Source: Candidatus Magasanikiibacteriota bacterium
GTDB lineage: Bacteria > Patescibacteriota > Patescibacteriia > Magasanikbacterales > UBA922
Direction: 5' to 3'
Length of the DNA: 64,000 bases
Assembly (NCBI GenBank): GCA_052033375.1
Contig: JBPOJQ010000008.1
Coordinates: 1,185-65,184 of the forward strand
The notes under the pieces were generated by a model, which worked only from the letters and a program-made list of their open reading frames with translations, did no database searches and was not told the origin of the DNA. A program made the translations under genes and the position numbers. Shown here in pieces: positions 7,518 to 40,982 of this stretch (position 1 is the first letter of the stretch; every line of letters begins with the position of its first letter).

Positions 7518-8423
7518 ATGTCCCTCGGCCGAATTATCAAATTTTCATTTCAGGATATTGTACGGAATATGAGTCTCTCATTCATGACCATACTCATTCT
7601 GATTCTTATGTTGCTCTCAATCAATACACTGATTATCGTCCGTGTATTGACCAACCAGTCTATCCAGTCGGTGAAAGACCAGATCGATGTGAGCATCTAT
7701 TTTGATCCGACGGCGAGTGATGAGAAAATTCAGGAGGTGCGCGATTTTGTAGCATCCCTTCCCGAAGTAGAAGAGGATCGGTATCTCACCAAAGAAGCGG
7801 TACTCGAAGAATTCAAAAAAACCTATTCAGGTAATACTGAAATTATTGATTCCCTAAATGAGCTGGGAGGAAATCCGCTCGGGTCTACATTGATTGTAAA
7901 GACAAAAGAGCCGAAAGATTATCAGACGATTATCTCAGCGCTGTCGGTACCCGAGTATGAGAGTATTATTGAGGCAAAGACGTTTGGGGATACAGAGACT
8001 GCAATTGACCGAATTCAGACGATTACCGTACAAGTCGAGCGATTCACCTATGCGCTTACTGCACTCTTTGCGATTATCGCTTTTGTGATTATATTCAACA
8101 CGATTCGGGTAGCTATTTATACACAGCGGGCAGAGATTGGAATCAAGCGATTAGTAGGCGCCACCAATTGGTTTATCAGCGGGCCCTATCTGGTAGAATC
8201 TTTTATTTTCACAGTCATTAGTATCGTCATTACCAGTGCCATTGCCTATTTCACACTGACCTTTCTCGACCCCTATATCAGCGTCATTTTTGAGTCACCA
8301 GCTATCTTGACAAATTACTTCACCTCGCATATACTTTTGCTGACTGGGGTGCAATTTGGGGCAGTATTTTTCCTCACATTGTTCTCAAGTATGCTTGCAA
8401 TGCGCAGGTATCTCAGGACTTAA
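7518..8423 (+). CDS. ftsX: Cell division permease FtsX
   Basis: N-terminal TM, large periplasmic domain, three C-terminal TM helices; operon partner of ftsE. Confidence 0.8.
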   Translation: MSLGRIIKFSFQDIVRNMSLSFMTILILILMLLSINTLIIVRVLTNQSIQSVKDQIDVSIYFDPTASDEKIQEVRDFVASLPEVEEDRYLTKEAVLEEFKKTYSGNTEIIDSLNELGGNPLGSTLIVKTKEPKDYQTIISALSVPEYESIIEAKTFGDTETAIDRIQTITVQVERFTYALTALFAIIAFVIIFNTIRVAIYTQRAEIGIKRLVGATNWFISGPYLVESFIFTVISIVITSAIAYFTLTFLDPYISVIFESPAILTNYFTSHILLLTGVQFGAVFFLTLFSSMLAMRRYLRT

Positions 8424-8510: not shown

Positions 8511-8581
8511 TCGGGGATCGTCTAATGGTAGGACTTTGGGTTTTGGTCCCAACTATCGGGGTTCGAATCCCTGTCCCCGAG
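8511..8581 (+). tRNA. tRNA-Gln (anticodon UUG)
   Basis: U1:A72 acceptor TCGGGGA/TCCCCGA, anticodon stem TTGGG/CCCAA with loop TTTTGGT (TTG), T-arm CGGGGTTCGAATCCCTG; discriminator G. Confidence 0.8.
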
Positions 8582-8583
8582 CT

Positions 8584-8621
8584 AAAAAAAGAATATAGCC
8601 AATTGGCTATATTCTTTTTTT
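8584..8621 (+). terminator. Rho-independent terminator after tRNA-Gln
   Basis: A-run, perfect hairpin GAATATAGCCAATTGGCTATATTC, then T7 run. Confidence 0.8.
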
Positions 8622-8625
8622 AAGT

Positions 8626-8812
8626 CAGAGATAAAGAGGGATTCGAACGAGGGAAGGGTGAAACCGTGAGGTTTCACTGGACTGAGGAAAGCACACGAAA
8701 ACCCGAAGGTTTTCGTGATATTTTCGAATAGCGAAGCGCCCTGTCCCCGAGCAAGAGAGTTTGGTGAAAGTGGCCCGACTCTATCCGAAAACCGCCCTCA
8801 AAGGCGGTTTTT
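8626..8812 (+). ncRNA. Candidate structured small RNA or att-site remnant carrying a 14-nt copy of the tRNA-Gln 3' end
   Basis: Three hairpins: GTGAAACC-GTGA-GGTTTCAC, CACGAAAACC-CGAAG-GGTTTTCGTG and terminator AAACCGCC-CTCAAA-GGCGGTTTTT; CCCTGTCCCCGAGC at 8739-8752 repeats tRNA-Gln 8569-8582. Confidence 0.3.
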
Positions 8813-8816
8813 GATA

Positions 8817-8845
8817 TTGACTGAAAAAAGTTAGCAGTCTATAAT
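8817..8845 (+). promoter_or_regulatory. Consensus sigma70-type promoter upstream of the nucleotidyltransferase gene
   Basis: TTGACT (8817-8822), 17-nt spacer, TATAAT (8840-8845); about 35 nt upstream of ATG 8880. Confidence 0.6.
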
Positions 8846-8879
8846 TGAGAGTGATAATTTACATAAAAACAAAACAAAT

Positions 8880-10268
8880 ATGAACATGGGTAAATACTTT
8901 TTCTCCTCCAATCCAGATAAAGAGACCTTACATAGTCGAATTATCCCAACTGAGGAACAAAAAGAAAGTCAAATAGAACGATGGAACGATTTGCGTGATT
9001 ATTTAGTGGAAAAACTTGGTGAGGCATCAGGGTACAAAATAACCTGGTGGCTTCAAGGTTCCTATAAGCTTGCAACACAGACCCGACCACCTAAAATTGG
9101 AGAAGAATTCGATGTCGACGTCGGTATTTATTTTAATTGGGATGGTGATGAGGACAACAGTCGGTTCACGGCTTTAGATCTAAAAACAATGGTCCAAAAA
9201 AATCTTTTAGACTATAAAGAAAAAGAAGGTGTTGATGATGTTAAAGAGGTGACAATTCCACCAAAAGAACGCTGCTGTCGAATTAGCTTTGAAGGAAACT
9301 TTCATATTGATGTGCCAGTCTATCATCAAGATGAAAAAAACGACACACGAAGATTAGCAACGAATAGCGATATCTGGGAAAAAAGTGATCCAAAAGAATT
9401 TTCTGATTGGTTCGTAAATCTATTACAGGACGAGGATAAGGCAAGTCAGCTACGACGCAGTATAAAGTATTTGAAAATATGGAGTGCTTTACATTTGAAG
9501 AAACAACCATCTTCCATATTATTGACAGTATTAGCTGCCAATGTGTATGTCAGGCAAAGTATCATTACTCAGGATGATGTTTGTCTAAAAATTATAGTTG
9601 ACGGAATAGTGGAAGATCTCTCTGTCAATCAAGCAGTCCTCAACCCTGTTAATCCAGAGGAGGATTTGAATAGACTCACAGAAAGTGAAACTACCGAACT
9701 AATCAATAACTTGAACACACTATCCCAACAAATTGATATTGCACTAAAAGCAGAAAGAGAAATAGATGCTTATTCGATTTGGTCAGAAATTTTCTGTCAC
9801 TTTTTTCCACCGATTGAAGATGTGAGCAATGATTCAAAAAATAATTCAATCATTCCTGTTACTTTTATCCCAAGAGTTTCTGTTAATGCCTACGACAAAT
9901 TCGGAAACAATAGAAGTTCGGGTATTAATCGTGTTGGTCCTATTCCTAAAGAGTGTACAATTTATTTTGAATTGACCAATGCACGCCTACTGCAGAGTGT
10001 ATACTATACCCAATGGGTAGTAAGAAACGCTGGCACTGAAGCAGATTACACAAACGATTTGGGTCATTTTGCAGGTAGTGATTCATTGAGAGCTAAGGAA
10101 AAATCTGCTTACAATGGGACGCATCATATGGATTTAATAATTAAATCACCTATTGGTCTCGTTCTGGGCTATGGGCATATACCAGTAATAATAGAGGATA
10201 TTCCTACCGTACCAAGAAATCCATTAAAAAAACCACCATATACTCAAATTAATAAAAAACATAAATAA
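8880..10268 (+). CDS. cGAS/DncV-like nucleotidyltransferase (CD-NTase/SMODS-like) candidate with C-terminal extension
   Basis: Pol-beta NTase signature in CD-NTase order: WWLQGSYKLATQT (GS), EEFDVDVGIYF ([DE]hDh), FHIDVPVY (third Asp); helical region follows, plus an unassigned ~160-aa C-terminal region. Confidence 0.55.
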   Translation: MNMGKYFFSSNPDKETLHSRIIPTEEQKESQIERWNDLRDYLVEKLGEASGYKITWWLQGSYKLATQTRPPKIGEEFDVDVGIYFNWDGDEDNSRFTALDLKTMVQKNLLDYKEKEGVDDVKEVTIPPKERCCRISFEGNFHIDVPVYHQDEKNDTRRLATNSDIWEKSDPKEFSDWFVNLLQDEDKASQLRRSIKYLKIWSALHLKKQPSSILLTVLAANVYVRQSIITQDDVCLKIIVDGIVEDLSVNQAVLNPVNPEEDLNRLTESETTELINNLNTLSQQIDIALKAEREIDAYSIWSEIFCHFFPPIEDVSNDSKNNSIIPVTFIPRVSVNAYDKFGNNRSSGINRVGPIPKECTIYFELTNARLLQSVYYTQWVVRNAGTEADYTNDLGHFAGSDSLRAKEKSAYNGTHHMDLIIKSPIGLVLGYGHIPVIIEDIPTVPRNPLKKPPYTQINKKHK

Positions 10269-10277
10269 TATAAACAT

Positions 10278-10859
10278 ATGCAGATTAGTCCAGAAAAAAA
10301 GGAAGATATATTGTTGGTCGCACTACAAGAGCGTTACGCATCAATACACAAAATTAGAGAACGTGTACAGTCAGTCGGGATTTGGGCATTAGGATTGATG
10401 TTAGCTGCCGGCGGTTGGATCATCCAGAGCGGTATAGTTTTAGAGGGCTTAGAAAAAATTCTGATTGTACTATTTTTAATTACAATATTTGTCATATTGC
10501 GTTTTACGTACTTGAAAGATCTGAATACCGGATTTAAAGGTCAGCAAAGAACTGCATCGGCGCTAGAAACAGAATTAGGATTTTACACCCCAGGTGTTTT
10601 TAACGAGACGAGTGTTCCTTTGTATCCTGAGAAATGGCAGAAAGCAGGAACAGAAGAAGGCGAAGGTAGATTTTTCAAAACATCGTACTACCTAATTTAT
10701 GTAGGTATTATTTTCCTCATATTGGTTGTTTTACTGAACGGTTTGAGTATAACCAGCAATTATGATCAAAATTCAATGACATACCGAACGTGTATGGAAG
10801 ACAGGAATGTTTTTATTCATAAGTTTCAGGATGATAAAATATGGTTTCACAGAAGATAA
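10278..10859 (+). CDS. Small 3-TM membrane protein (candidate effector of the nucleotidyltransferase operon)
   Basis: 10 nt after the upstream stop; predicted TM helices at GIWALGLMLAAGGWIIQ, ILIVLFLITIFVIL and YYLIYVGIIFLILVVLL. Confidence 0.45.
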   Translation: MQISPEKKEDILLVALQERYASIHKIRERVQSVGIWALGLMLAAGGWIIQSGIVLEGLEKILIVLFLITIFVILRFTYLKDLNTGFKGQQRTASALETELGFYTPGVFNETSVPLYPEKWQKAGTEEGEGRFFKTSYYLIYVGIIFLILVVLLNGLSITSNYDQNSMTYRTCMEDRNVFIHKFQDDKIWFHRR

Positions 10860-11275
10860 AACAAGAAATAGAAACAAGATTCCAACTTGCATTAACCATA
10901 TCAATTTTGTTTCCAACCTTTTTAGCAACAGCATCTCAAAGAGTAAAAACTGAGGATGTGCAAATAGCACAAACTGTTTTAACGTGGTCTATTTTAATTG
11001 GTGGATTTTTATTGGATTATGTATTTTTTTCTCTGATTAAAAATAAAATTAAGAATTGGACATATGTATGGGTAAATAGGATGCTCATTTTTGGTATAAG
11101 TCTATTTATTTTTCCTATTCTTTTTCTTTCCACCGTCAACCTAGAGGGACCGGATCCTGGCTTGATTAATACAGTCGGACTTCAAGGCTCTCTATATGCG
11201 TTATTAGTTGTTCCTCTTATTATTTTGGTAATACTACTAATAAGCTTTTTAAGTTTTGCAGCGGGTAAAAAGTAA
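10841..11275 (+). CDS. Small 4-TM membrane protein (second candidate effector)
   Basis: Overlaps the upstream gene by 19 nt (operonic); four hydrophobic helices; no soluble domain. Confidence 0.45.
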   Translation: MVSQKIKQEIETRFQLALTISILFPTFLATASQRVKTEDVQIAQTVLTWSILIGGFLLDYVFFSLIKNKIKNWTYVWVNRMLIFGISLFIFPILFLSTVNLEGPDPGLINTVGLQGSLYALLVVPLIILVILLISFLSFAAGKK

Positions 11276-11986
11276 TTACGTCGACAAACTAATCTCTTTA
11301 TTTTGTAATAGTAATTTACTGTTTAGATGTTTGAGTACTTCTCGTTTCTGATCTTTCGTTCCATCTCTCAAAATATATTTAGCATAATTTCGCATATCTC
11401 CGGTCGTGAGTGTATTAAAAACTTCGCCCCCTGTTCCAAATACTCCTAGAGCAAATTTCTTTAGTTTAAGAACCTCTTGTTCCATTTTTTCCTGCAGGAC
11501 AAATTGATCGAGCTCTATTTTATCCATCAAATGCAATATCTGCCTCAATAGCTCCTCTTCACGTATTGCACCCTCCTTACAGTCCCGATTCTTGCCTTTG
11601 GTGCAGTGATAATACACGTACCGATGCGTATTCCCATTCTGCTGGTGCTTGAACTTTTCTTCAGCACATATTCCTGATCCACATCCTCCGCAATATAGTA
11701 GATTGGTAAACTCATACTCAGTATTCCCTGGATGTCGTCGTGCTGGAGCTAACAAATTAGCTTGAGCTAAATCAAAGAGATGTTTCGTAATAATCGGATA
11801 ATGGCTTCCGGTATAGAACTTCTTACTGCCGACTGGAAATTCAAACATCCCGTGATAGATGGTTTCTTTCAGCACTCGGTGTATGTGTGCTATACTCGTT
11901 TCATCTATGTGTTTTTCAGCCACAGCCAGCTTCACCGCGAGTGCACTTCTCGCGACGACCGGAGTTGCGTCAATTATGCAGACCAA
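11276..11986 (-). pseudogene. C-terminal remnant of a large serine recombinase
   Basis: Recombinase-domain and Cys-rich zinc-ribbon region (NLLYCGGCGSGI...HRYVYYHCTKGKNRDCKEG) plus coiled-coil tail; catalytic N-terminal resolvase domain absent. Confidence 0.55.
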
Positions 11987-34814: not shown

Positions 34815-35396
34815 ATGAAAAAAGTATTAATCGGGGTGGGGGTACTGGTAGTATTATTTGGACTGTTTATCTGGTGGGGAACCACGCTCGAAGATACGCC
34901 ACAGTCGACAACTACTGAGCAAAAAGCACCGGAAGTAACTCAAAAAAGTATACAGAATTTTACGTCGGATAAAGGAAATTTTTCTATTTATTTCGAAGGA
35001 TCTCCAGAATACACACTCGAACCGCTCACATTGGAAAGTGGCGAATCTTTTCCAGCGCATCTGTATCAATATCAGGATGCTGATGGTAGCGTCTGGCAAG
35101 TATTTTTCACTGAATATCCAGAAAAAGCAGTATTGGCTTCAAATGATGTAGATTCATTGCTAAACACAATCAAAGGTACCGAAGGGTCGATTGGTGGAAA
35201 ATTGATATCGACAAATGTCACTTCGTATCAGGGATATACTGCAATTGATTACGAAATGTATGTCGAAGCAGACAAATATTATTTCAAAGGAAGAAATGTG
35301 CTCAATGGACGAAAACTCTATTCAGTGGCGTATATTCATGGAGAGGGAAAGACAGGAGATTATCAAAAATTCTTTGATTCATTGTTGATTAAATAA
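34815..35396 (+). CDS. Membrane-anchored secreted protein, tandem paralog 1
   Basis: N-terminal anchor MKKVLIGVGVLVVLFGLFIWWG; shares a DKGNFS..YF...PEYT...WQVFFTEYP...YYFKGRN.L.GRKLYSV.YI core with downstream paralog. Confidence 0.55.
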   Translation: MKKVLIGVGVLVVLFGLFIWWGTTLEDTPQSTTTEQKAPEVTQKSIQNFTSDKGNFSIYFEGSPEYTLEPLTLESGESFPAHLYQYQDADGSVWQVFFTEYPEKAVLASNDVDSLLNTIKGTEGSIGGKLISTNVTSYQGYTAIDYEMYVEADKYYFKGRNVLNGRKLYSVAYIHGEGKTGDYQKFFDSLLIK

Positions 35397-35433: not shown

Positions 35434-36009
35434 ATGAAAAAAGTATTAATCGGGGTGGGGGTAGTGCTCGTGTTATTTGTATTATTTATCTGGTGGGGGA
35501 GTACTATTGAGGATACGCCGGAATCGAACAATTCTGGGACGATGGATACAGCGCCCGTCACTACTCAGGACTTCACTTCGGATAAAGGAAATTTCTCAGT
35601 ATATTTCGGAGGAGCTCCTGAATACACCCCAGGTACACTCTCACTGAAGAATGGGGATTCATTTGCGACACATCTCTATCAGCACCGCGCAGAGGATGGT
35701 AGTGTCTGGCAAGTATTTTTTACTGAATATCCGAAGAGTGCTGATCTATCCAATGAGGAAAACTTTTTGTTGAATAGTATCAAAGGAACCGAAAGTTCAA
35801 TCAATGGAAAAATTGTATCGAGTAATAGTACAAAATATCAGGGATTGCCTGCCATTGACTATCTGATCTATCTCGAGAATGAAAAATATTATTTCAAGGG
35901 TAGAAATATTCTCGATGGACGAAAACTTTATTCAGTCGTATATATCTACGATGATGGAAAAGAAGTTTCTTCTGAAAAGTTTTTCAGCTCATTCAAGATA
36001 CTCAAGTAG
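35434..36009 (+). CDS. Membrane-anchored secreted protein, tandem paralog 2
   Basis: First 27 nt identical to paralog 1; about 55% identity overall by eye. Confidence 0.55.
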   Translation: MKKVLIGVGVVLVLFVLFIWWGSTIEDTPESNNSGTMDTAPVTTQDFTSDKGNFSVYFGGAPEYTPGTLSLKNGDSFATHLYQHRAEDGSVWQVFFTEYPKSADLSNEENFLLNSIKGTESSINGKIVSSNSTKYQGLPAIDYLIYLENEKYYFKGRNILDGRKLYSVVYIYDDGKEVSSEKFFSSFKILK

Positions 36010-37563: not shown

Positions 37564-37950
37564 GTGACGACTGAGAAATGGAAGCTTCCTGCTTCCGAGG
37601 ACACGAAATCTTTGTTGATCAAAAGTATATGGGGGAGGGGATGGAAAGACGTCTTGAATGGTGGCTGGCTTCTCTGGTACGAGATCGGCGACATCACAAG
37701 TCTCACTGATGAAGAGTGCGCCTCGATCACTCAGGAACTTTTCGTCGGACAGCGCGGATCTGGCAGTATCGAACTGCATCGAAGCCGCAAACTGGATGGT
37801 GCGCCAATGATCCTCTGTCTTCGGGGTAACCTGCGCCTACATCCGGCACTCATCATTCGTGGCCGCTACTGCCCGCTCTACACGGTGGCAGACCCGGCCG
37901 GTAGCTGCATCAACTTCTACTCGGTGTGGTTATGGCACAAGTTCTCATGA
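37564..37950 (+). CDS. Hypothetical protein in high-GC islet (E)
   Basis: GTG start 9 nt after AAAGGAG; Trp/Gly-rich N-terminus; 7-bp GC hairpin 37958-37991 and T-run 38011-38025 downstream. Confidence 0.35.
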   Translation: MTTEKWKLPASEDTKSLLIKSIWGRGWKDVLNGGWLLWYEIGDITSLTDEECASITQELFVGQRGSGSIELHRSRKLDGAPMILCLRGNLRLHPALIIRGRYCPLYTVADPAGSCINFYSVWLWHKFS

Positions 37951-38169
37951 ACTACTAGACGGCGTTGGATTCGTCAGGGACCAGCGCCGTCGTCCCCAAC
38001 TCTCATCAAAGAGTTTTTTTGTTTTAAAAGGTAAATACTCATTTCACTCTAACAAAAATCCGAACCATTCCTAGCTTGAATTTTACGTACTTGGCTCGGA
38101 CGGCTGGACGATGTTAGAACTAAACTAGGCTAAATTAAGTTAAACTCTGTTATATATCAATTATTACAT

Positions 38170-40428
38170 TTATAAAGTCTTAATTAATTCAAAAACATCT
38201 TTTATATCTTTTTTATAGTCATTTAAGCCAAGTTGACCTTCAGGATACTGACCGTTGGTAGAATTATCATGATGTGTCAAATTAGTAAGTATAGAATTTA
38301 TTTCTGTACGCTTACTTACTTCTGCATAAGGTCCTCCTGGTTCTTCTAGTTTTGTCAGCATGTCACCTACAGTATTAATCTCTTTTGTCAGTTCAATAGG
38401 ATACTTAACCTTAAGAACATGCTCAATAACTTTTCTTATGCAACCATGAGCATTCTTCACTACAGCTATATCCTGCGATGATCCTGCACTCTTCATGTCA
38501 GTAATCCAGCAGTTATAGTCACTCATAAACTCTGCGTCTTCGTGAGGGTTGCATACCGTAAAGTCACTTCCGTTTACTGAATCAAGGGATATTCTCAAAA
38601 AAGCTGTTGTCGCATCTCCTGCACTTTCAGCATGCAAGAGTTGGTAGAAGCCCTTTTCGTGAGTAAGAATTATTAGTTGCTTGTCGGTGGCTGACAAGAT
38701 TCTCTTAATCTCAGTTAGAATAATTCTCTTTCTATCAGAGTCGAAGCTTGATACTGGATCGTCCATGACCACAACTTTGATCGTTGCGTCGTTCTTTACA
38801 GTAGCTAAAAAGAAAGCGAGAGCGAGCACCCACTTATCACTATCACTCAAACAGTTTTTAACTGTCATCTCCGAGTCATCACCATCATTGGATATCTCAC
38901 TGCCAGACATACTCAATACAAGCAGTTCTTGTCTTTGATTTCCTTTAAAATTAAATTTCTGTACCGTAAAATCGCAGTTACACGCAGTCAGAACATCATT
39001 GATATCTTTAAGCATCGCGGTTGAGAGTCCGTTTGCATATACCAAGTATTCTTCCCAAAGCTTTGTCTTTTCCGCACTAAGAGTTTTACTCTCTTTCTGA
39101 GCTTTCAGATAATTTTCACATCGGTCTTTCCAAGAATCGAATCGTTCCTTGTTTGCTTCAAGTGTCTTTAGTGATGTTTCGAGTTCAGCTTTCTTTTTTG
39201 TAGGATTCTTGAAGTTCACTAGTTCAGCATCAATAGCAACAATGTGAGCATCAGCTTTTGTTGAAATATCCGCAAACGGCACTGTGTCGAAGTCGCTTGA
39301 TAGATCATCTTTTTTGTTTGTGATTGATTTCTTGCAAGACTCAAAAAGTCCATCAATATCAGAAAAGTCTATTTCCAAAATGTACCCCGCTTGTTTGAGG
39401 TCTGTTTTAATTTTCTCTATCTCAGTTGAAAAACTCTCCTGAGGGAATAGACCCTCTGTTTCTTTGATCGCTTGCTGAAGATTTCGGTACTTATTGTTAT
39501 AGATCAGATCAATTGTCGCAAGGAATTCTTTTACTGAATCCTCTTTAATCTCTTGCGTACAAAATGGGCAGTGCTCATTTTCGGCACGAGAACGTAATTT
39601 AGCTCCTGATTGTAGAAAAGCACTATACGATTGCTTTGTTTCTTTTGAATTTACATGACTCTCGAAATGATTTGCTATGAGTTCACTGTTTACAGAAAGA
39701 TTTTCGGAAATTTGAGTAGTATCAAAATTCTTGTATCGCTCAAGCAAAGTTTTTATACTCCCGAGTTTACTCGATATCAACTCTGAATTTTTTACTTTAT
39801 CAAGATCCTTTTGCCCTTTCTCGATTTTAGTATCAATATCAGCAACTTCAGTAAGCCCGAGAAAAGTTTCAAAAGATAGCCCTCCTAAAAGGTGTTTGTT
39901 TCTTGTGTACTCGCCATTAATTGATGTTTGAGTCTTTGTGTTCTCAGCTATTTGTTCAGCAAGTCCTGCGATTTTTACATTATATTCAACACCTTTTGCA
40001 CCGAGCATAAACGCCTCAATGTTCTTCTGCTGTTCCTGACCAATTTGCTGGTTTTGAGTGTAGACACTTTCTCTGACAAAGTGGTTATCAAAAACTATGA
40101 TGTCCTTATACTCCGCACTCCACTTAGCTTCGTCTGTTGTGTATCTATACTCTCCTGTAGGCGTAGTGACTTCGGGAATAATCTTTATAGTCTGCTTTTG
40201 GCTTCCGATTGTCTTTCTTCCAATAATGTAGTCTGGCTTGTTTTCCTTTAATGAACGAAAAATTGATGTGAGGGTGCTTTTACCAAAAGTGTTTTTTCCA
40301 TACACAAAAGTATTCTTCTTGAAGAATTGTTCATCACCCTCTGTTTTGGCGGATTTGAATCGACCAACATTATTTATTTCTATTTTTTTTAACATATTTA
40401 AAATTATACCTTCTTCAAAAACTCCCAA
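38170..40428 (-). CDS. RloC/PrrC-like ABC-ATPase with zinc hook and C-terminal HEPN nuclease domain
   Basis: Walker A VYGKNTFGKST; central coiled-coil with CPFC; ABC signature LSDSDKWVLALAFFLA; Walker B/D-loop IKVVVMDDPVSSFD; C-terminal Rx4H (HGCIRKVIEH). Confidence 0.7.
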   Translation of the reverse strand: MGVFEEGIILNMLKKIEINNVGRFKSAKTEGDEQFFKKNTFVYGKNTFGKSTLTSIFRSLKENKPDYIIGRKTIGSQKQTIKIIPEVTTPTGEYRYTTDEAKWSAEYKDIIVFDNHFVRESVYTQNQQIGQEQQKNIEAFMLGAKGVEYNVKIAGLAEQIAENTKTQTSINGEYTRNKHLLGGLSFETFLGLTEVADIDTKIEKGQKDLDKVKNSELISSKLGSIKTLLERYKNFDTTQISENLSVNSELIANHFESHVNSKETKQSYSAFLQSGAKLRSRAENEHCPFCTQEIKEDSVKEFLATIDLIYNNKYRNLQQAIKETEGLFPQESFSTEIEKIKTDLKQAGYILEIDFSDIDGLFESCKKSITNKKDDLSSDFDTVPFADISTKADAHIVAIDAELVNFKNPTKKKAELETSLKTLEANKERFDSWKDRCENYLKAQKESKTLSAEKTKLWEEYLVYANGLSTAMLKDINDVLTACNCDFTVQKFNFKGNQRQELLVLSMSGSEISNDGDDSEMTVKNCLSDSDKWVLALAFFLATVKNDATIKVVVMDDPVSSFDSDRKRIILTEIKRILSATDKQLIILTHEKGFYQLLHAESAGDATTAFLRISLDSVNGSDFTVCNPHEDAEFMSDYNCWITDMKSAGSSQDIAVVKNAHGCIRKVIEHVLKVKYPIELTKEINTVGDMLTKLEEPGGPYAEVSKRTEINSILTNLTHHDNSTNGQYPEGQLGLNDYKKDIKDVFELIKTL

Positions 40429-40529
40429 ATTCTAACCATTGCCATCGTATCAAATTTACAATACTCAAAAATATTTTTTGTGTACGTTGGGCCATTATCG
40501 ATAGTACCCTCTATACTCTAAATCGTCAA

Positions 40530-40560
40530 ACAAAAAAACCAGTCCTTCTAGACTGGTTTT
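40530..40560. terminator. Bidirectional rho-independent terminator
   Basis: AAAAAACCAGTC-CTTCTA-GACTGGTTTTTT just beyond the CCA end of the minus-strand tRNA-Asn. Confidence 0.75.
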
Positions 40561-40933
40561 TGGCTCGGCGGGCGGGGCTCGAACCCGCGACCCACTGGTT
40601 ACAGTATCCTTCCTCTTTCAAGGAAGACTGGACTATGTCATCACCCATGCCGTAAACCTGGCAGAATAAATTCTCCAAGAGCCTGGGGGTGCGGAGCGCT
40701 TCCCGCCCCGACGTTGTCGGGGAAGTACTCCCATAAAGGGATAGTCTCTGAACCTTTCTAATCCGCCGCTAATTCCAGTAAAACTGGAGCATCGGATTAA
40801 ACTTGGCTGCAGGTTACCCTATGGAAAACCATAGTAGCGGCTTCCTGCAATTCACTCCGTTGGCATCCTGACATTACTATCAAGAGCTGCTAATTTTTAA
40901 CAGCCAGTTGCTCTACCGCTGAGCTACCGCCGA
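40561..40933 (-). tRNA. tRNA-Asn (anticodon GUU) interrupted by a ~298-nt group I intron in the anticodon loop
   Basis: 5' exon (~40900-40933): TCGGCGG-TA-GCTCAGCGGTAGAGC-A-ACTGG-CUGU; 3' exon (40561-40601): UAA-CCAGT-GGGTC-GCGGGTTCGAGCCCCGC-CCGCCGA-G-CCA; spliced loop CUGUUAA gives GUU. Confidence 0.75.
40602..40899 (-). other. Group I self-splicing intron (candidate)
   Basis: Minus-strand core elements: AATTGCAGGAAG (P-like), CTGCAGCCAAGT (P4/P6 Q-like), GGTTCAGAGACTA (R/P7 5'), ATAGTCC (S/P7 3'); terminal G before 3' exon; U at 5' splice site. Confidence 0.65.
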
Positions 40934-40953: not shown

Positions 40954-40982
40954 AGTATACTACAGATATATTCATTAGTCAA
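40954..40982 (-). promoter_or_regulatory. Sigma70-type promoter for tRNA-Asn
   Basis: Minus strand TTGACT (40977-40982), 17-nt spacer, TATACT (40954-40959), ~20 nt upstream of tRNA 5' end. Confidence 0.5.

Follow-up and report, generated by a model that had tools for sequence, protein, structure and literature searches.

A probable RloC-type anticodon nuclease gene of a Candidatus Magasanikiibacteriota bacterium and its relatives among defence and mobile contexts of Patescibacteria

A stretch of 64,000 nucleotides of contig JBPOJQ010000008.1 from a Candidatus Magasanikiibacteriota bacterium, referred to below as the window, carries at 38170..40395 on the minus strand a gene of 741 codons plus stop. 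Its product fuses an ABC ATPase, a predicted zinc hook and a putative nuclease domain at the C-terminus. This architecture indicates that the open reading frame (ORF) is of the RloC type and not of the PrrC type, with a probability that we put at about 0.8. With the same likelihood the protein would serve as a single-protein abortive-infection defence enzyme, whose nuclease activity, substrate and trigger we infer from its relatives. No new mechanism comes to light: the RloC-type family is known and already labelled so by public annotation pipelines, and the window gene adds to it a member from a clade of the Candidate Phyla Radiation (CPR).

The landmarks that had been read along the protein in the original prediction (P-loop, CPFC, LSDSDK, Walker B with D-loop, RKVIEH) are all present and in that order. 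They are numbered here in the 741-amino-acid frame, all lie on the minus strand, and their conservation was read from an alignment of 39 sequences reaching down to 21% identity. The Walker A motif or P-loop, GKNTFGKST (residues 33-41, 40273..40299), has N35, G38, K39 and T41 invariant. A helical, coiled-coil insert interrupts the ATPase head at residues ~120-471 (38983..40038), as delimited with the AlphaFold2 model and Foldseek, and includes the CPFC zinc-hook motif (residues 276-279, 39559..39570), in which C276 and C279 are invariant. Further along are the ABC signature-like LSDSDK (residues 516-521, 38833..38850; L516 and D520 invariant), the Walker B motif and D-loop VVVMDDPVSSFD (residues 541-552, 38740..38775; D545, D546, P547, S550 and D552 invariant) and the H-loop or switch THEKG (38650..38664), with Q573 and H579 invariant. 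The C-terminal all-helical domain, predicted to be the anticodon nuclease, occupies residues 612-741 (38173..38562). It holds RKVIEH (residues 654-659, 38419..38436), of which R654 and E658 would be the Arg-X3-Glu of a catalytic triad, and T-H708-H709-D-N-S (38260..38277), which provides the predicted catalytic histidine or histidines 49-50 residues past E658. R654 and E658 are invariant in the 39 sequences, H708/H709 are kept in at least 90% of them and invariant in the ortholog clade; the invariant columns of the alignment are essentially the functional residues.

RloC was defined by Davidov & Kaufmann by PrrC-like ABC motifs, a Rad50-like coiled-coil/CX2C insert and a C-proximal Arg-X3-Glu-X36-52-His (PMC2610378). 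The residues mutated in the Geobacillus protein GkaRloC (804 amino acids) were K44, C291, D572, R692, E696 and H737 (PMC2610378, PMC3458546). The window protein, of similar size (741 vs 804 amino acids), has K39, C276/C279, D545/D546, R654, E658 and H708/H709 in the same order and at very similar spacing, so that K44 is matched by K39 and D572 by D545/D546. The arrangement R654-x3-E658-x49-H708, or x50 to H709, fits the published triad, and a spacing of about X53-54 between Glu and His was counted by hand on the alignment in some distant relatives. Judged from sequence, all three definable features of RloC are present, because the landmarks are collinear with those of GkaRloC and X49/50 falls within X36-52. 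Like RloC, the window protein belongs to a single-gene system that is sometimes linked to restriction-modification (R-M). It differs in coming from a distinct, tightly conserved CPR/Patescibacteria clade, in the extra His directly after the catalytic-type Glu of that clade (R-x3-E-H), and in that the CPR orthologs are found with R-M or serine-recombinase islands more often than the description of RloC as 'rarely linked' would have it.

Database searches place the protein in the same family. The Pfam model AAA_13 (PF13166) matches with E=7.9e-33 (114.5 bits vs a cutoff of 36), and ten PADLOC models of PDC-S06 match, the best with E=1.8e-48; such scores cannot be put down to chance. PDC-S06 is a computational candidate defence system for which no mechanism is reported; the 'S' in its name presumably stands for a single-gene system. 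Secondary PADLOC matches to LmuB (E=1.7e-13), AbiLi and AriA lie over the ATPase motifs. NCBIfam holds no model for the family of this protein. A search of 5.8 billion proteins returned orthologs at 47-94% identity from metagenome-assembled genomes of Candidatus Nomurabacteria, Pacebacteria/Paceibacteria, Parcubacteria and Saccharibacteria. Several of them, even fragments consisting of the C-terminal part only, are named 'wobble nucleotide-excising tRNase' by the Joint Genome Institute (JGI), a name that RloC bears and that we take to be the label of COG4694. Distant relatives from other phyla are ~715-775 amino acids long at 21-31% identity, and full-length homologs of ~24% identity are present on proteobacterial plasmids. 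No homolog was found in phage genomes at E<=1e-5.

The gene appears complete and functional. The list of ORFs gives a TTG-initiated frame of 752 amino acids (38170..40428, minus strand), whose first 11 residues, contributed by the TTG at 40428, are not conserved. Translation almost certainly starts at the ATG at 40395 (MLKKIEINN..., 741 amino acids), because about 55 orthologs are 738-742 amino acids long, the PADLOC models align only from residue 12 of the longer frame onwards, and the nucleotide homology with orthologs ends 1-6 nt upstream of that ATG. The ratio of non-synonymous to synonymous substitution rates (dN/dS) of the window gene against two orthologs is 0.057-0.060. Judged by these sequence comparisons, strong purifying selection acts on an intact gene, which is called functional on that basis. 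An intact gene of this kind in CPR/Patescibacteria would mean that ultrasmall, genome-reduced bacteria still keep a costly suicide defence.

The predicted structure is in line with the order of the motifs. In the full-length AlphaFold2 model, with a predicted local distance difference test (pLDDT) score of 86.3, long helices at 120-267 and 286-471 interrupt the ABC head. The helices of the insert are modelled at 120-165, 187-222 and 238-267, then at 286-335, 345-393 and 398-471, and the CxxC sits near the middle of the insert, in a short non-helical stretch between the two sets. The model thus shows the coiled-coil insert with a central CX2C that belongs to the definition of RloC, and a zinc hook is predicted there. 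Weak matches to known hooks were obtained with Pfam Rad50_zn_hook (E=0.14, residues 282-311 of the 752-amino-acid frame) and with the Rad50 hook structure 1l8d (E=0.064, profile positions 256-307). Foldseek against the Protein Data Bank (PDB) matched the full model to the heads of SMC, Rad50, SbcC, Lamassu LmuB and JetC at E 1e-9 to 1e-5, and a sequence profile aligned the region from the signature to the H-loop with Rad50 structures (E=1.2e-8). Sequence and fold searches of the PDB turned up no RloC or PrrC structure; the window protein would be a compact candidate for biochemistry or structure determination.

Such similarity raises the question of whether the protein is a repair ATPase of the Rad50/SbcC type, or an SMC-like one, that works with a separate nuclease, the C-terminal domain being a protein- or DNA-binding module. 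The head and coiled coil are closest in fold to SMC, Rad50 and SbcC structures, the alignment from signature to H-loop is to Rad50, and the weak hook matches are to Rad50 as well. In common with Rad50, SbcC and the SMC proteins, among them LmuB of Lamassu and JetC of Wadjet, the window protein has a head of this fold, an antiparallel coiled coil and a CxxC resembling a zinc hook. However, a C-terminal nuclease domain is absent from those proteins, which work together with separate subunits as partners; no gene for such a partner lies beside the window gene. Rad50 and SbcC lack the additional C-terminal domain, which is conserved here together with its R-x3-E...HH signature, and the helical insert of ~350 residues is much shorter than theirs. 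No Mre11/SbcD metallophosphatase adjoins the gene in nine annotated ortholog contexts or in the window, and the neighbours are R-M and mobile-element genes, not repair genes. The original prediction would have been abandoned if the protein had grouped with repair ATPases and an SbcD partner had come to light; neither is what the nine contexts and the conserved extra domain indicate, and we regard a Rad50/SbcC-type role as very unlikely.

The C-terminal domain was also analysed separately. A model of residues 612-741 (~130 residues) has six helices and a pLDDT of 83.6. When 1.84 billion representative proteins were searched with a profile of the domain alone, 1244 representative clusters were retrieved at E<=1e-3; in all of the 150 best matches listed the domain is C-terminal, and the proteins mostly have ~730-790 amino acids. 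Proteins of ~400 amino acids with this domain, considered as a possible link to PrrC, were rejected as they are fragments of 760-amino-acid proteins. Among the 20 top PDB fold matches of the domain, nine are HEPN proteins, including Csm6', SsR10, HepT/MntA toxins, a Thermus (TTHA) HEPN protein and SO_3166, and this modelled fold similarity is suggestive, though below significance. The domain resembles HEPN RNases (Csm6/Csx1, HepT, RnlA/LsoA, KEN domains) in being small and all-helical with Arg/His-type, metal-independent catalytic residues; in contrast to them, the family of the window protein has no canonical Rx4-6H throughout, and RKVIEH fits Rx4H in the CPR clade only.

It was RKVIEH that had been proposed as a HEPN Rx4H motif. 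The segment was rightly chosen, with R654 and E658 invariant, but the histidine was not: H659 is conserved within the CPR clade only, G, E, N, T or R standing in its place elsewhere (e.g. 'IRPLLEG', 'RIVLEE'), and the conserved His of the family is H708/H709. No conserved Arg lies 4-6 residues upstream of H708/H709. PrrC residues common to RloC include R320, E324, R349, N352 and H356 (PMC3025547), and the HEPN-type R...H pair of PrrC is R349/H356 (PMC3025547, PMC3710099). PrrC H356 corresponds here to H708/H709, not to H659. The nuclease domains of RloC and PrrC were placed in the HEPN superfamily by Anantharaman et al. (PMC3710099).

PrrC shares with the window protein the ABC-ATPase N-domain, the C-terminal nuclease with an Arg-Glu-His triad, the R-M linkage seen in relatives and the role in abortive infection that is predicted here. 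Unlike the window protein with its 741 amino acids and 350-residue insert, PrrC has ~396 amino acids and neither coiled-coil nor zinc-hook insert. It always lies within a type Ic hsd operon and has a PrrC box and a LARP motif; the window copy is not placed in such an operon. The PADLOC model of PrrC, PDLC02360, does not match the window protein at E<=1, and in family members it meets only the ATPase motifs.

The way the enzyme would work can be drawn from the characterised RloC proteins of Geobacillus (GkaRloC; PMC3458546, PMC3874168) and Acinetobacter (AciRloC, Acinetobacter baylyi). Resting dimers would be kept inactive via zinc-hook joints. DNA ends, or the loss of restriction control under phage attack or DNA damage, would switch on the DNA-dependent ATPase, and hydrolysis would free the C-terminal metal-independent RNase. 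This RNase is expected to cleave the tRNA anticodon loop before and after the wobble nucleotide, thereby excising it. Translation would then halt and the phage would be denied a productive host, and the enzyme would in this way back up restriction as a second line of defence.

Several observations weigh against the assignment to RloC and against the predicted nuclease. The HEPN fold matches of the C-terminal domain are not significant (best E=0.86, TM 0.44-0.50), and the domain alone matches no Pfam model, hence no Pfam HEPN family. Because of these two results its HEPN membership, which is taken from the literature, is unproven. The full-length model has a pLDDT below 50 at residues 711-719, in the region of the active-site His. 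A Thr precedes the His-His doublet here, whereas in RloC 'Ser often precedes His'. Finally, membership in RloC rests on the collinear motifs, the Pfam match and the JGI name, and GkaRloC was compared through its published residue numbers.

The genomic contexts of the orthologs (loci designated L with a number) link the RloC-type gene to restriction and to mobile DNA. In a complete Nomurabacteria genome (L001, 78% identity) it lies 1 nt past hsdS of an hsdR-hsdM-hsdS operon, and in L005/L006 (87% identity) it lies 4 nt past hsdR, with hsdMS-hsdR directly upstream. It is found 5 nt past the gene of a type ISP enzyme in L087, adjoins type III mod/res in L090 and L010, and has a serine recombinase and a DpnII system as neighbours in L002. 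The loci L004 (94% identity), L009, L088 and L089 are islands that carry ParB-methylase and terminase-like genes as well as a large serine recombinase. Distant relatives lie inside hsd operons, as prrC does (L017, L018, L032, L042, L048, L074, L082). Overall, five of about 12 ortholog contexts are R-M-adjacent, and with these R-M and island settings the gene has the 'restriction-linked ORF' ecology that is classic for RloC and PrrC. The lack of type I R-M genes, from which the protein had been called standalone, holds for the window copy: when the 64 kb were searched by tblastn with hsdR, hsdM and hsdS of ortholog loci, the sole match was a weak hsdM-like one at 18.7 kb (E=0.003). It does not extend to close orthologs, which adjoin hsd, type ISP and type III genes.

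Nucleotide homology between the window gene and L001, L004, L005 and L006 amounts to 74-90% identity and is confined to 38169-40402. The flanks are wholly unrelated and consist of hsdS, hsdR, type ISP, a helix-turn-helix gene, a recombinase or a tRNA. At 37.2%, the GC content of the window gene is below the window mean of 41.7% and among the lowest 6% of windows of that size. The window copy seems to have been acquired horizontally, because of this low GC and because the homology with orthologs stops within a few nucleotides of the start and stop codons. From these sequence comparisons, the RloC-type gene behaves like a one-gene cassette swapped among defence and mobile contexts. On a further reading, which we consider improbable, the CPR clade would move as an exact single-gene cassette that inserts behind any R-M operon available, and this would imply an unrecognised cassette-exchange mechanism. 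Within CPR the gene is passed around together with restriction systems (types I, III and ISP) and with islands of large serine recombinases, a pattern that is useful for a catalogue of the CPR defensome.

Three of the approximately 12 ortholog contexts have a small ORF of 137-152 amino acids, with no Pfam match, directly downstream of the RloC-type gene (L004 10277-10690, L089 8227-8685, L007 2326-2781). It may be an optional accessory gene. Its absence from the window could also be taken as a sign that the window protein is the orphaned sensor ATPase of a multi-gene system similar to LmuB of Lamassu, PtuA of Septu, AriA of PARIS or AbiL, inert after the loss of its effector. The secondary PADLOC matches to LmuB, AbiLi and AriA, and the presence of LmuB among the fold matches, could be read in the same way. 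However, those PADLOC matches span only common ABC motifs, the best models are those of PDC-S06, single-gene by our understanding of the naming, and the small ORF is restricted to the three contexts. Moreover, the gene is intact and strongly selected and has a candidate effector domain in cis with invariant catalytic-type residues. An inert remnant is therefore quite unlikely.

Upstream of the RloC-type gene and on the same strand lies a tRNA-Asn(GUU) gene interrupted by a group I intron, as had been noticed in the original prediction and as is borne out by an Rfam match and by the ARAGORN call on the spliced form. The gene covers 40561..40933 on the minus strand, with exons at 40900-40933 and 40561-40601, and its intron of 298 nt (40602-40899, minus strand), which ends in G, is inserted between U35 and U36. 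The Rfam model RF00028 matches at 40609-40909 on the minus strand with 85.1 bits (E=3e-20), and a U-G pair can be read from the sequence in P1 of the intron. Removal of 40602-40899 yields a canonical 75-nt tRNA called tRNA-Asn(gtt) by ARAGORN, which missed the unspliced gene. A metagenome scan for the junction of tRNA-Asn exon and P1 recovered one distant, non-syntenic contig, L091 (JGI Ga0066639_10002902). At 7647-8124 this contig has a related intron-bearing tRNA-Asn, with 71-81% identity over the exon and the intron ends.

The two neighbours might be functionally coupled, tRNA-Asn(GUU) being the dedicated substrate of the nuclease or the intron keeping a pool of precursor as a protected reserve. 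The two genes are adjacent, co-oriented and 165 nt apart, and the intron at 35/36 adjoins the wobble position that RloC enzymes excise, which is an analogy only. The adjacency is not conserved, however. An ARAGORN scan of 16 ortholog loci found tRNA-Trp (L002/L003), tRNA-Ser(GGA) (L005) and tRNA-Ser(GCU) (L090) close by, a distant tRNA-Met in L010 and no tRNA in the remaining loci; none of the other ortholog contexts is tRNA-Asn-adjacent. An Rfam scan of nine ortholog loci gave no group I intron, and L091, with the sole other intron-bearing tRNA-Asn recovered, has no AAA_13 gene and thus no RloC-type gene nearby. The sequence between the two genes argues against coupling as well. A strong terminator-like hairpin with a 12-bp stem and a T-run (40534..40561, minus strand) follows right after the CCA end of the tRNA. 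Two promoter-like hexamer pairs, TTGACG-17-TACTAT and TTTAGA-17-GATAAT (40494..40529, minus strand), each agree with the consensus at 9/12 positions, being consensus matches only, and a promoter-like site of the tRNA-Asn itself is at 40954-40982. From these sequence features the tRNA-Asn and the RloC-type ORF would be two transcription units, because the hairpin lies between them; the homology with orthologs likewise ends at the ORF. It should be added that tRNA genes commonly edge integrated islands. The proposed link of the nuclease to the intron-bearing tRNA-Asn consequently finds no support, and a dedicated coupling appears highly improbable. Since orthologs adjoin different tRNAs or none, no group I intron was found in the nine loci scanned and the tRNA has its own terminator-like hairpin, the adjacency looks coincidental and the tRNA would simply be a neighbouring transcription unit.

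A 17-nt direct repeat of the 3' end of the tRNA past the stop codon of the RloC-type gene (38091-38107 vs 40560-40576) looked like an attL/attR pair of attachment sites. It was rejected as chance because 5.5% of shuffles reach the best local-alignment score.

On the other side of the RloC-type gene, the high-GC islet described earlier is real, with 53-63% GC at ~37650-38000. It is accounted for by an ORF of 128 amino acids with 54% GC (37564-37950, plus strand), which is convergent with the RloC-type gene. Pfam gave no match for this ORF at E<=10, no counterpart of it lies beside orthologs, and the islet has no Rfam match at E<=1. By eye only, the product is vaguely like SUKH/SMI1-type immunity proteins, and hairpins with a T-run can be seen past the stop codon (~37955-38027), which the terminator scan did not list. 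For comparison with a possible empty site, metagenomes were scanned with the RimK-like neighbour, which gave no relatives. Two tandem paralogs at 34815-35396 and 35434-36009 (plus strand) encode proteins of 193 and 191 amino acids with a hydrophobic, signal-like segment at the N-terminus; the first, the one of the pair that was scanned, has no Pfam match.

Further elements accompany the ortholog loci. LOOT RNA (Rfam RF03000, 69-86 bits) recurs in those with a large serine recombinase (L004 5266-5388, L088 4480-4594, L009 3826-3938 and 12670-12783, L089 3049-3166) and lies ~150-200 nt from the end of the recombinase gene in L004, L009 and L089; none is present in the window at the gathering threshold. 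This distribution suggests that the LOOT motif belongs to the serine-recombinase class of CPR mobile element. A pair resembling a diversity-generating retroelement, consisting of an RVT_1 reverse transcriptase and bAvd, is located at 12570-13970 of L090 beside the island of type III R-M and RloC-type genes.

The window has a second tRNA-flanked defence islet at 8511-11986, whose GC content of ~36.5% is low like that of the RloC-type gene. A tRNA-Gln gene (8511-8582, plus strand) is directly followed by the gene of a CD-NTase, a CBASS-type cyclase with a DncV-like NTase and an AGS_C sensor domain (8880-10268, plus strand). Mobile DNA ordinarily lodges beside tRNA genes; the different tRNAs at the island edges of orthologs fit this, and the islet is a further instance. 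Two small ORFs without Pfam matches come next (10278-10859 and 10841-11275). The islet closes, 1 kb past the CD-NTase gene, with a truncated large serine recombinase (11276-11986, minus strand), in which the Recombinase and Zn-ribbon domains are kept and the catalytic resolvase N-domain is gone.

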